This document shows, one piece after another, positions 53,201 to 56,200 of a DNA stretch of 64,000 nt. Position numbers: made by a program. The stretch's first letter is position 1, and every line of letters starts with the position of its first letter. This stretch comes from Escherichia coli (lineage in GTDB: Bacteria > Pseudomonadota > Gammaproteobacteria > Enterobacterales > Enterobacteriaceae). The DNA is taken from assembly GCF_002854065.1 (NCBI RefSeq), contig NZ_CP024147.1, one strand, 5' to 3'.

Positions 53201-56200
53201 GCACTGGCGCGAAACAGCACGCTACCGTCCTGTACCACTGTCCCGGCATGGACGCTATCGCCTTCGCCTTTTTGCTGCGGGATAGGTTCGCCCGTCAGCA
53301 TCGCTTCATCCAGCCATGCTTCGCCCTGGGTAATCTCGCCATCTACTGGCACGCGGTCGCCCGTCGTCAGGCGCAGTAGCATGCCTGGCTGAACTTCCGC
53401 CAGCGGCACGCTTTTTTCACCTTCGTCAGTAACCAGGCGCGCCGTCGGCGGAGTTAAATCGAGTAATTTCTCCAGCGCCTTTGAAGAACGCTGACGTGCG
53501 CGCGCTTCCAGCATATGACCGAGATTAATCAGACCGATAATCATCGCACTGGCTTCATAGTAAAGATGCCGCGCTTCCATCGGGAACCACTGCGGCCACA
53601 GGTTGACGCTCATCGAATAGAGCCACGCCACGCCAGTACCCAGCGCCACCAGCGTATCCATCGTCGCCGCACCGTTTAGCAGGCTTTTCCATGCACTGCG
53701 GTAAAAATGACCGCCGGCGAAAACCATTACCGCCAGGGTTATCAGGCCGATAACTAACCACAGGCTGCGGTTATCGGGGGTGACCATCATGTTATCGCCG
53801 ATCATCCCCCAGACCATTACCGGGATACCCACAGCCAGTGCAACAATTGCCTGCCAGCGGAAGCGCTTCATCGTAGCGACGGCGGTTTCTTGCTGGCGCT
53901 CGCGGCGTTTAGCGTCATCTTCAATCGCTTCCGCACCGTAGCCCGCTTTTTCCACCGCCTGCACTAAATCTTGTGGGGAGGCACTGCCCATCACCAGCGC
54001 AGTACGCTCCGCCAGGTTTACCCGTGCCTGAGTGACGCCCGGTACGCTTTGCAACGCATTTTGTACGCGGGTGACACAGCTGGCGCAGCTCATGCCGCTC
54101 AGCAGCAACTGCTGGCTGTCATCGTCATCGGCGGTCGCTGCCGGAAGCGCCTCAGAAACCGCTGTCAGTGCTTCCGACGGGATTGATGACTCCGCCAGCG
54201 GTTTAGCCTTTGGGTGGCTTACAGATGCGTCATAACCCGCTTGTTTGATGGTTTCGATCAGCTGTTCTGCACTGGCAGTCCCGGTAACGTGCGCTTCAGT
54301 GATAGACACATCCGCTTGTTCCACATCCGGGCGCTGTTCGAGACTTTCTTTCACGCGTTTAACGCAGTGACCGCAGGACAGGCCGTCCAGGGTCAGGTCG
54401 ATAGTTTGTGACATAAAACACTCCTTTAAGACAGTTTTGACTGGCTGTGATAAAGGTTAAACCTTCCAGCAAGGGGAAGGTCAAGAAATTAATAACCCAG
54501 GCGAGTAAAAGTCCGTAAAGATTAAAAAATCGGCTCGATTTGCATCAGGATTAGACATTTATCTCTTTGTTTTCCTGTAGTTAAGTTGCGGGTGCTAAGT
54601 TAAATCAGGATGCCTGAAAATCGGCACCGGGGTGAGGAATTACCTCCCGCATCTATAAAAAGGAGTTAACAAAAGATGTTAGATGCAAACAAATTACAGC
54701 AGGCAGTGGATCAGGCTCACACCCAATTTCACTCACTTAACGGCGGACAAAATGCCGATTACATTCCCTTTCTGGCGAATGTACCAGGTCAACTGGCGGC
54801 AGTGGCTATCGTGACCTGCGATGGCAACGTCTATAGTGCGGGTGACAGTGATTACCGCTTTGCACTGGAATCCATCTCGAAAGTCTGTACGTTAGCCCTT
54901 GCGTTAGAAGATGTCGGCCCGCAGGCGGTACAGGACAAAATTGGCGCTGACCCGACCGGATTGCCCTTTAACTCAGTTATCGCCTTAGAGTTGCATGGCG
55001 GCAAACCGCTTTCGCCACTGGTAAATGCTGGCGCTATTGCCACCACCAGCCTGATTAACGCTGAAAATGCCGAACAACGCTGGCAGCGAATTTTACATAT
55101 CCAACAGCAACTGGCTGGTGAGCTGGTAGCGCTCTCTGACGAAGTCAACCAGTCGGAACAAACAACCAACTTCCATAACCGGGCCATTGCCTGGCTGCTG
55201 TACTCCGCCGGATATCTCTATTGTGATGCAATGGAAGCCTGTGACGTGTACACCCGTCAGTGCTCCACGCTCATCAATACTGTTGAACTGGCAACGCTTG
55301 GCGCGACGCTGGCGGCAGGGGGGGTGAATCCGCTGACGCATGAACGCGTTCTTCAGGCCGACAACGTGCCGTATATTCTGGCCGAAATGATGATGGAAGG
55401 GCTGTATGGTCGCTCCGGTGACTGGGCGTATCGCGTTGGTTTACCGGGCAAAAGCGGTGTAGGTGGCGGTATTCTGGCGGTCGTCCCTGGCGTGATGGGA
55501 ATTGCCGCGTTCTCACCACCGCTGGACGAAGAAGGCAACAGTGTTCGCGGTCAAAAAATGGTGGCATCGGTCGCTAAGCAACTCGGCTATAACGTGTTTA
55601 AGGGCTGATCATGATGAACACGGAAGGTAATAACGGTAACAAACCTCTCGGTCTATGGAACGTCGTTTCCATCGGCATTGGGGCAATGGTGGGGGCGGGG
55701 ATCTTCGCGCTGCTGGGGCAGGCCGCGTTGCTAATGGAAGCCTCGACCTGGGTCGCCTTTGCTTTTGGCGGTATTGTGGCGATGTTTTCCGGTTATGCCT
55801 ATGCGCGCCTGGGGGCGAGCTATCCCAGCAATGGCGGTATTATCGACTTTTTTCGTCGCGGATTAGGCAACGGCGTCTTTTCGCTGGCGCTCTCGTTACT
55901 GTACCTGTTGACGCTGGCGGTGAGCATCGCCATGGTCGCCCGTGCTTTTGGCGCTTATGCCGTGCAGTTTTTGCATGAAGGCAGCCAGGAGGAGCACCTT
56001 ATTTTGCTCTACGCGTTGGGGATCATTGCGGTGATGACGCTTTTCAACTCCTTAAGCAACCATGCGGTAGGGCGGCTGGAAGTGATCCTCGTCGGCATTA
56101 AAATGATGATCCTGTTATTGCTGATTATTGCCGGTGTCTGGTCGCTGCAACCGGCGCATATTTCCGTCTCTGCGCCCCCCAGCTCCGGTGCGTTCTTCTC

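Follow-up and report, generated by a model that had tools for sequence, protein, structure and literature searches.

The stretch of DNA analyzed here, 64,000 nucleotides (nt) of an Escherichia coli genome (contig NZ_CP024147.1 of assembly GCF_002854065.1; hereafter the window, whose coordinates are used throughout), carries the copper-efflux gene copA on its minus strand, with the ATG at 54414. Close to the 5' end of copA is a slippery heptamer that is followed one codon later by a stop in the -1 frame and then by two interleaved inverted repeats, and this arrangement is almost certainly a programmed -1 ribosomal frameshifting cassette through which the 70-residue copper chaperone CopA(Z) is made from the same message as the pump. 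The cassette is the known recoding site itself and not a variant of it, already published and annotated in databases, and its value for this window is confirmatory, in that an O157:H7-like strain is seen to carry the intact signal. The only additions are mildly new: covariation support for the downstream pseudoknot, and a two-domain variant of the Photorhabdus type. The features discussed are collected in Table 1.

The heptamer lies in the correct register. The earlier note, made from the sequence alone, had placed C CCA AAG at codons 68 and 69 of copA with GGC TAA in the -1 frame, and its coordinates (54203-54214) are exact. On recounting, the heptamer runs from 54214 to 54208, with codon 68 (CCA) at 54213-54211, codon 69 (AAG) at 54210-54208, and the preceding C at 54214. 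Translation of 54414-54208 gives 69 residues with the C terminus ...SHPK, and translation of 54214-54203 gives P K G and a stop; the predicted CopA(Z) is encoded in the 0 frame over codons 1 to 69 and then in the -1 frame by GGC TAA (54208-54203), with base 54208 read twice. These 69 residues plus glycine make up one complete HMA domain (residues 8-62 match PF00403 with E = 1.2e-13, over profile positions 3-62 of 62) with the CxxC metal site C14-G-H-C17, in agreement with the proposal in that note of a 70-residue product consisting of the metal-binding domain only, and by sequence similarity the product resembles solved CopZ and HMA structures. The slip site is located directly after the end of HMA domain 1 of the full-length protein, in which Pfam identifies two N-terminal HMA domains, an E1-E2_ATPase domain, and a HAD hydrolase domain. 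The analysis thus confirms the observation and supports its interpretation, with production of CopA(Z) in this strain being predicted.

The comparison with K-12 shows an identical cassette. A 431-nt query from the copA 5' end falls under a copA annotation in 5422 of 5426 complete E. coli genomes and is 100% identical to one O157:H7 strain, and the neighboring genes match those of K-12 (ybaQ upstream in the record and glsA/ybaT downstream), as befits the orthologue of b0484. Over 381 nt the window is 99% identical to K-12 MG1655, and the five substitutions, all in codons 25 to 33, leave the protein unchanged; the slip site and the 110 nt downstream of it are 100% identical. RefSeq K-12 has a two-piece joined coding sequence (CDS) at copA, YP_009518752.1 "soluble Cu(+) chaperone," to which the predicted 70-residue sequence corresponds exactly, and UniProt describes it as "Isoform Soluble copper chaperone CopA(Z)." The window and K-12 therefore share the gene, the heptamer at codons 68 and 69, the GGC TAA tail, and the 70-residue product, with no difference anywhere in the cassette even though the window comes from an O157:H7-like strain. 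These identities support the frameshift reading given in the earlier note.

Frameshifting at this site is well documented for K-12. According to PMC9548414, efficient frameshifting in E. coli copA was discovered and characterized by Meydan et al. 2017 (Mol Cell 65:207), the published work to which the earlier note referred without a citation, and Drees et al. 2017 (Mol Microbiol 106:635) then provided independent confirmation; the two studies are cited in PMC9548414, PMC7558416, and PMC10861913. As summarized in those papers, the evidence in K-12 comprises ribosome profiling, in vitro translation, and independent confirmation. Independent ribosome profiling also supports it, with ribosome density falling past the -1 stop, and the refuted part of the copA claim is only its extension to human ATP7B (PMC9548414). 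Three stimulators are described, namely the slippery sequence, the pseudoknot, and the nascent chain (PMC7558416), and copA, with its 70-residue product, is one of only three well-characterized frameshifts in E. coli cellular genes, together with dnaX and prfB (PMC5009743, PMC6771820, and PMC10861913). The binding of Cu(I) by CopA(Z) and its transfer to the pump are taken from the literature (including PMC7558416), as is the protection of cells against copper, which is described for the identical K-12 sequence.

The signal can nonetheless escape annotation. The automated RefSeq record of O157:H7 TR01 (NZ_CP033605.1) has the 'DnaX frameshifting element' marked and has no CopA(Z) CDS at copA, and most E. 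coli genomes probably lack an annotated CopA(Z), judging by the two records compared (NZ_CP033605.1 and K-12). A search of Rfam 15 with positions 54100-54260 (minus strand) returned no family at the gathering score and only chance-level matches, with E values of at least 0.47.

The earlier note had also pointed to a downstream pseudoknot as a feature to look for, and a candidate structure was found, with two stems (S1 and S2) that both have compensatory changes and with S1 recovered by RNAalifold. The two interleaved perfect inverted repeats 3' of the slip site have the topology of an H-type pseudoknot: the first pairs AAACCGCUG (54204-54196) with CAGCGGUUU (54164-54156), and the second pairs CGGAAGC (54176-54170) with GCUUCCG (54148-54142). 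Loop 1 is 13 nt long in E. coli, and as duplexes the 6-bp core of S1 and the whole of S2 have calculated energies of about -9 and -14 kcal/mol, respectively. The 9-bp form of S1 given by the first repeat was rejected as the conserved form, as most relatives cannot form its three outer A-U pairs; in E. coli these three extra pairs could cut the spacer to 3 nt. The spacer to the conserved S1 base is 6 nt, within the approximately 5 to 9 nt expected of a -1 frameshift cassette.

Covariation was assessed in an alignment of 31 distinct cassette sequences. The conserved S1 core (CCGCUG/CAGCGG) pairs in all 186 cells, including those of six sequences with CCGUUG/CAACGG, a compensatory change from C-G to U-A, and over the full stem 98.6% of cells pair. 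From the alignment alone, RNAalifold recovers S1 and extends it inward by CGG/CUG past a 1x1 mismatch. S2 (GUCGGAAGC/GCUUCCGGC) is 95% paired, and one of its pairs is seen variously as G-C, C-G, U-A, and G-U. Standard pairs occupy 96.8% of the cells of the 18-pair model, compared with 16 to 45% when the partners are slid by one to three columns. The topology, its conservation, and the covariation are evident in these alignments, and folding into a pseudoknot is the predicted outcome. The same alignment, with S1 and S2 marked, could seed an RNA-family model for automatic annotation of CopA(Z).

Relatives were collected in two ways. A genome scan with full-length CopA was dominated by matches to MVGDGIND, a motif generic to P-type ATPases, and yielded only three Enterobacterales loci, the copA genes of Citrobacter, Enterobacter, and Photorhabdus, all of which have the cassette. 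Metagenomes were scanned with a degenerate DNA pattern for GMSCASCV in the second metal-binding domain, which lies about 110 nt past the slip site and outside the cassette, giving 120 loci. Forty-five of these form a long-linker class, in which the upstream metal-binding domain lies at least 85 residues before the anchor, and every one of the 45 has C_CCA_AAG or C_CCA_AAA in frame, followed one codon on by a -1 stop. This combination is present in none of the 7 metagenomic loci from short-linker two-domain relatives and in none of the 66 that have no upstream domain within the open frame; two truncated metagenomic contigs also carry the cassette. Of 56 CopA genes from outside Enterobacterales that have an N-terminal domain, none had CCCAAAG at this position.

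The variation among these relatives is informative as to what is conserved. Across the 31 distinct sequences the first six bases of the heptamer, CCCAAA, never vary, the seventh is G or A, and the -1 stop is TAA or TGA at a fixed position. The overlapping 0-frame residues vary, the first being Ala, Pro, Ser, or Thr and the next Lys, Asp, Glu, or Asn, with codon 70 always xCT and the next two bases always AA or GA. The -1 stop is thus under selection, as TAA and TGA alternate while the 0-frame residues change. The predicted frameshift products are 70 to 77 amino acids long in 44 loci. Synonymous codon diversity is 0.44 over codons 1 to 64, falls to 0.11 over codons 68 to 92, and rises again to 0.36 over codons 93 to 106 (Mann-Whitney p = 1e-9 for codons 68 to 92 against codons 1 to 64, and 3e-4 for the other comparison), and amino acid conservation is no higher in the cassette than elsewhere (0.77 versus 0.81). 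With similar amino acid conservation and a four-fold drop in synonymous diversity, constraint on the protein alone is insufficient as an explanation, and the alignments show purifying selection across Enterobacterales on heptamer, -1 stop, and both stems. In E. coli itself, 5348 of 5422 genomes (98.6%) share the same 73-nt cassette, and the one variant inspected has a loop base change only. Of two control segments, the downstream one is identical in 96.8% of genomes and the upstream one in only 34%; identity within E. coli is not very discriminating.

Two further sets of CopA sequences were noted in passing. A metagenomic E. coli copA contig (L163) lacks single bases of the cassette (CCCAAAGGCTAACCGC, and ACTGCAGCGGG); these deletions appear to stem from errors in assembly or sequencing and not from a natural loss of the signal. 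In other phyla, CopA genes (from Propionigenium maris, a Dehalococcoidales metagenome-assembled genome, and an uncultured Bacillus) have A_AAA_AAA or G_GGT_TTT_TTT at the end of HMA domain 1, at codon 61 in L062, codon 67 in L048, codon 66 in L025, and codons 76 and 77 in L035, some with a -1 stop within one codon. These heptamers are mostly A-rich and come from probably low-GC lineages, in which Lys-rich linkers make chance occurrence likely; they could be independent slippage sites that release a CopZ, or chance in such linkers.

The Photorhabdus locus extends the arrangement to a longer product. CopA of Photorhabdus caribbeanensis (L004:1501-2100) has three HMA domains, and the intact cassette follows the second of them, at codon 138. 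It consists of C_CCA_AAA, TCT GAG that in the -1 frame becomes ATC TGA, and the pairing segments CCGCUG/CAGCGG and CCGGAAC/GUUCCGG, and the predicted product is about 140 amino acids long, with two HMA stretches found by Pfam. A metagenomic contig (L112) likewise has a complete cassette after two tandem HMA domains, and a compensatory pair in S2 is C-G in the Photorhabdus sequence and U-A in this contig. We regard it as an evenly balanced proposition that the cassette is an Enterobacterales-wide, covariation-supported element that has no Rfam family and that frameshifting of the Photorhabdus type would release a two-domain chaperone of about 140 to 150 amino acids.

The heptamer pattern by itself carries little weight. 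In a crude set of 51 open reading frames (ORFs) of the window there are 31 in-frame X_XXY_YYZ heptamers, about one per 556 codons, and the bare pattern is not set apart from chance. Only 3 of the 31 are of the N_NNA_AAG type, which slips efficiently on the single tRNA-Lys of E. coli; these are in copA, in dnaX, and inside the transposase ORF of an IS1 element. The copA and dnaX sites are the two -1 frameshift sites known in E. coli cellular genes, and the window holds both. The case for function is made because of the identity to the validated K-12 site, the conservation across genera of heptamer, -1 stop, and structure, and the position at the end of HMA domain 1. We note another heptamer in the reading frame of copA, G_GGG_GGC at codon 738 (52198-52204, minus strand), with a -1 stop two codons later; no evidence was found for its use or for structure downstream of it.

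Several observations reduce the force of the support for the cassette. The nested minimum-free-energy fold of the region is unremarkable (z = -0.73), most stem columns are invariant, and the covariation comes from few, probably clade-level events, with two pairs changed on both sides. The structure was originally identified in the window sequence itself, which biases the slid-partner control in its favor, and the boundaries of S1 and S2 rest on that sequence together with the alignment. The metagenomic relatives are also unlabeled and phylogenetically non-independent. No sequence-level argument against the frameshift explanation itself was found.

The alternatives concern how a short product could arise, or whether the motif has any role at all. 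The single-domain protein might come mainly from a short transcript, made by premature termination or RNA processing in copA, with the heptamer contributing little. The title of Drees et al. suggests that a short transcript may contribute alongside frameshifting, but it names frameshifting too, and a truncated mRNA without a 0-frame stop would not give a defined 70-residue product ending in Gly. Moreover, a -1 stop that is conserved through changes between TAA and TGA is sensible only if ribosomes enter the -1 frame. On the coding strand no intrinsic-terminator-like site was found at or after the cassette, S2 is without a following U-run, and terminator and promoter scans at the cassette gave nothing relevant. 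The literature also reports that full-length copA mRNA yields the 70-residue protein, dependent on the heptamer, in a defined in vitro translation system. We consider a short transcript unlikely to be the main source.

It is still less probable, and in our judgment very improbable, that the heptamer and the -1 stop arose by chance within a conserved linker peptide (SHPKAKPL) and that the nucleotides are conserved through protein constraint only. In-frame heptamers are indeed common (31 in the 51 ORFs), and within E. coli a control segment is nearly as invariant as the cassette (96.8% versus 98.6% of genomes). Yet the residues after Pro-Lys vary while a -1 stop is preserved, the four- and six-fold degenerate codons among codons 68 to 92 are nearly fixed (synonymous diversity of 0.11 versus 0.44), both stems have compensatory pair changes, and the identical sequence frameshifts experimentally (PMC9548414). 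Loss of a base in the mRNA through slippage of RNA polymerase is the remaining route to a -1 product. Such slippage on homopolymer runs is known from some bacterial sites, including insertion sequences and Thermus dnaX (reviewed in PMC5009743), but the runs here are only CCC and AAA, whereas known transcriptional-slippage sites typically have about 7 or more bases. A conserved pseudoknot with a 6-nt spacer is the hallmark of ribosomal -1 frameshifting and not of slippage by the polymerase. Polymerase slippage is scarcely credible as the source.

Programmed ribosomal frameshifting is thus the preferred explanation, and it would proceed as follows. At C_CCA_AAG the P site of the ribosome would be occupied by tRNA-Pro, paired with CCA, and the A site by tRNA-Lys, paired with AAG, and the H-type pseudoknot 6 nt downstream, with S1 presumably placed at the mRNA entrance, would resist unwinding. 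A fraction of ribosomes would slip one base back, the tRNAs presumably re-pairing on CCC and AAA, and would then read GGC and stop at TAA, releasing the 70-residue CopA(Z), which is the first HMA domain by itself and would act as a soluble CopZ-type Cu(I) chaperone. Ribosomes that do not slip would go on to make the full 834-residue Cu(+) efflux ATPase, and one copper-induced mRNA would yield both products. This explains how E. coli, which has no copZ gene, can still produce a copper chaperone in fixed proportion to the pump.

Upstream of copA, the 19-nt promoter spacer carries the dyad ACCTTCC-N7-GGAAGGT, a putative CueR/MerR-type operator. With this promoter architecture both products would therefore be copper-induced. 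A sigma-70 scan gave no match at this promoter, as expected for a 19-nt spacer. Downstream of ybaT, positions 57241-64000 (plus strand) carry, as in O157:H7, a gene for a TolC-family outer-membrane protein and the beginning of a gene for a giant BapA/SiiE-like adhesin. In K-12, cueR is presumably downstream of ybaT, and if so, it is displaced from copA here and lies outside the window.

Table 1. Coordinates of the copA recoding cassette, its gene and promoter, and other RNA features in the window
Feature	Position	Strand	Basis
copA CDS, 0-frame product, 834-aa Cu(+)-exporting P1B-type ATPase	51910..54414	-	ORF list, translation, Pfam
CopA(Z) coding region, 70 aa predicted	54203..54414	-	translations
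Slippery heptamer C_CCA_AAG (X_XXY_YYZ), Pro68-Lys69	54208..54214	-	direct reading and in-frame scan
-1 stop TAA, one codon past slip	54203..54205	-	translation
Spacer GCUAAA, 6 nt, heptamer to conserved S1 base	54202..54207	-	stem boundaries
S1 5' arm CCGCUG-G-CGG	54192..54201	-	inverted repeat, RNAalifold
S1 3' arm CUG-A-CAGCGG	54159..54168	-	inverted repeat, RNAalifold
S2 5' arm GUCGGAAGC, inside S1 loop	54170..54178	-	inverted repeat; part of minimum-free-energy fold
S2 3' arm GCUUCCGGC, 3' of S1	54140..54148	-	inverted repeat
copA promoter: -35 TTGACC, 19-nt spacer, -10 TAACCT	54454..54484	-	sequence reading; block conserved upstream of relatives
dnaX frameshift element	36055-36119	+	Rfam RF00382, 96.8 bits
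naRNA4 (REP-derived), just 3' of copA	51721-51798	both	Rfam
sroB, between ybaK and ybaP	50340-50423		Rfam
sraA	803-898		Rfam
Signal recognition particle (SRP) RNA ffs	18550-18646		Rfam

The cassette can be set beside several known systems. The dnaX site (tau/gamma) is of the same kind, with an N_NNA_AAG-type heptamer read by a single tRNA-Lys, a -1 stop one codon on, and a truncated functional protein, and its parts in this window are an AGGGAG Shine-Dalgarno-like stimulator, A_AAA_AAG at 36074-36080, GAG TGA in the -1 frame, and a downstream stem-loop. The two differ in that the dnaX heptamer is A_AAA_AAG, accompanied by a Shine-Dalgarno-like stimulator upstream and a simple stem-loop downstream, whereas copA has C_CCA_AAG and a pseudoknot; no conserved Shine-Dalgarno-like sequence was found upstream of the copA slip site in the 31-sequence alignment. 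A contribution of the nascent chain is a further difference of copA from dnaX, according to the literature (PMC7558416). CopA(Z) resembles the stand-alone chaperones of the CopZ/Atx1 type in being a single HMA domain of about 70 amino acids with CxxC but, unlike CopZ, has no gene of its own, having the promoter, start codon, and 69 residues in common with the pump. With its heptamer, 6-nt spacer, and two interleaved 9-bp stems, the copA cassette is also comparable to the H-type pseudoknot stimulators of viruses and insertion sequences; it departs from these in that loop 1 is long (13 nt) and translation ends almost at once, with no long overlapping ORF.

Elsewhere in the window, an IS1 copy at about 20218-20985 (plus strand) is inserted in pdeB (ylaB), which is split into ORFs at 19161-20048 and 20980-21495. 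A 167-residue ORF at 20466-20969 matches the IS1 transposase model NF033558, and the G_GGA_AAG at 20798 inside this transposase ORF, the third of the N_NNA_AAG heptamers counted above, is probably there by chance. The A_AAA_AAC frameshift motif of insAB' lies at 20523, and the IS1 copy is bordered by a direct repeat of 9 bp, AGCTATAGG.

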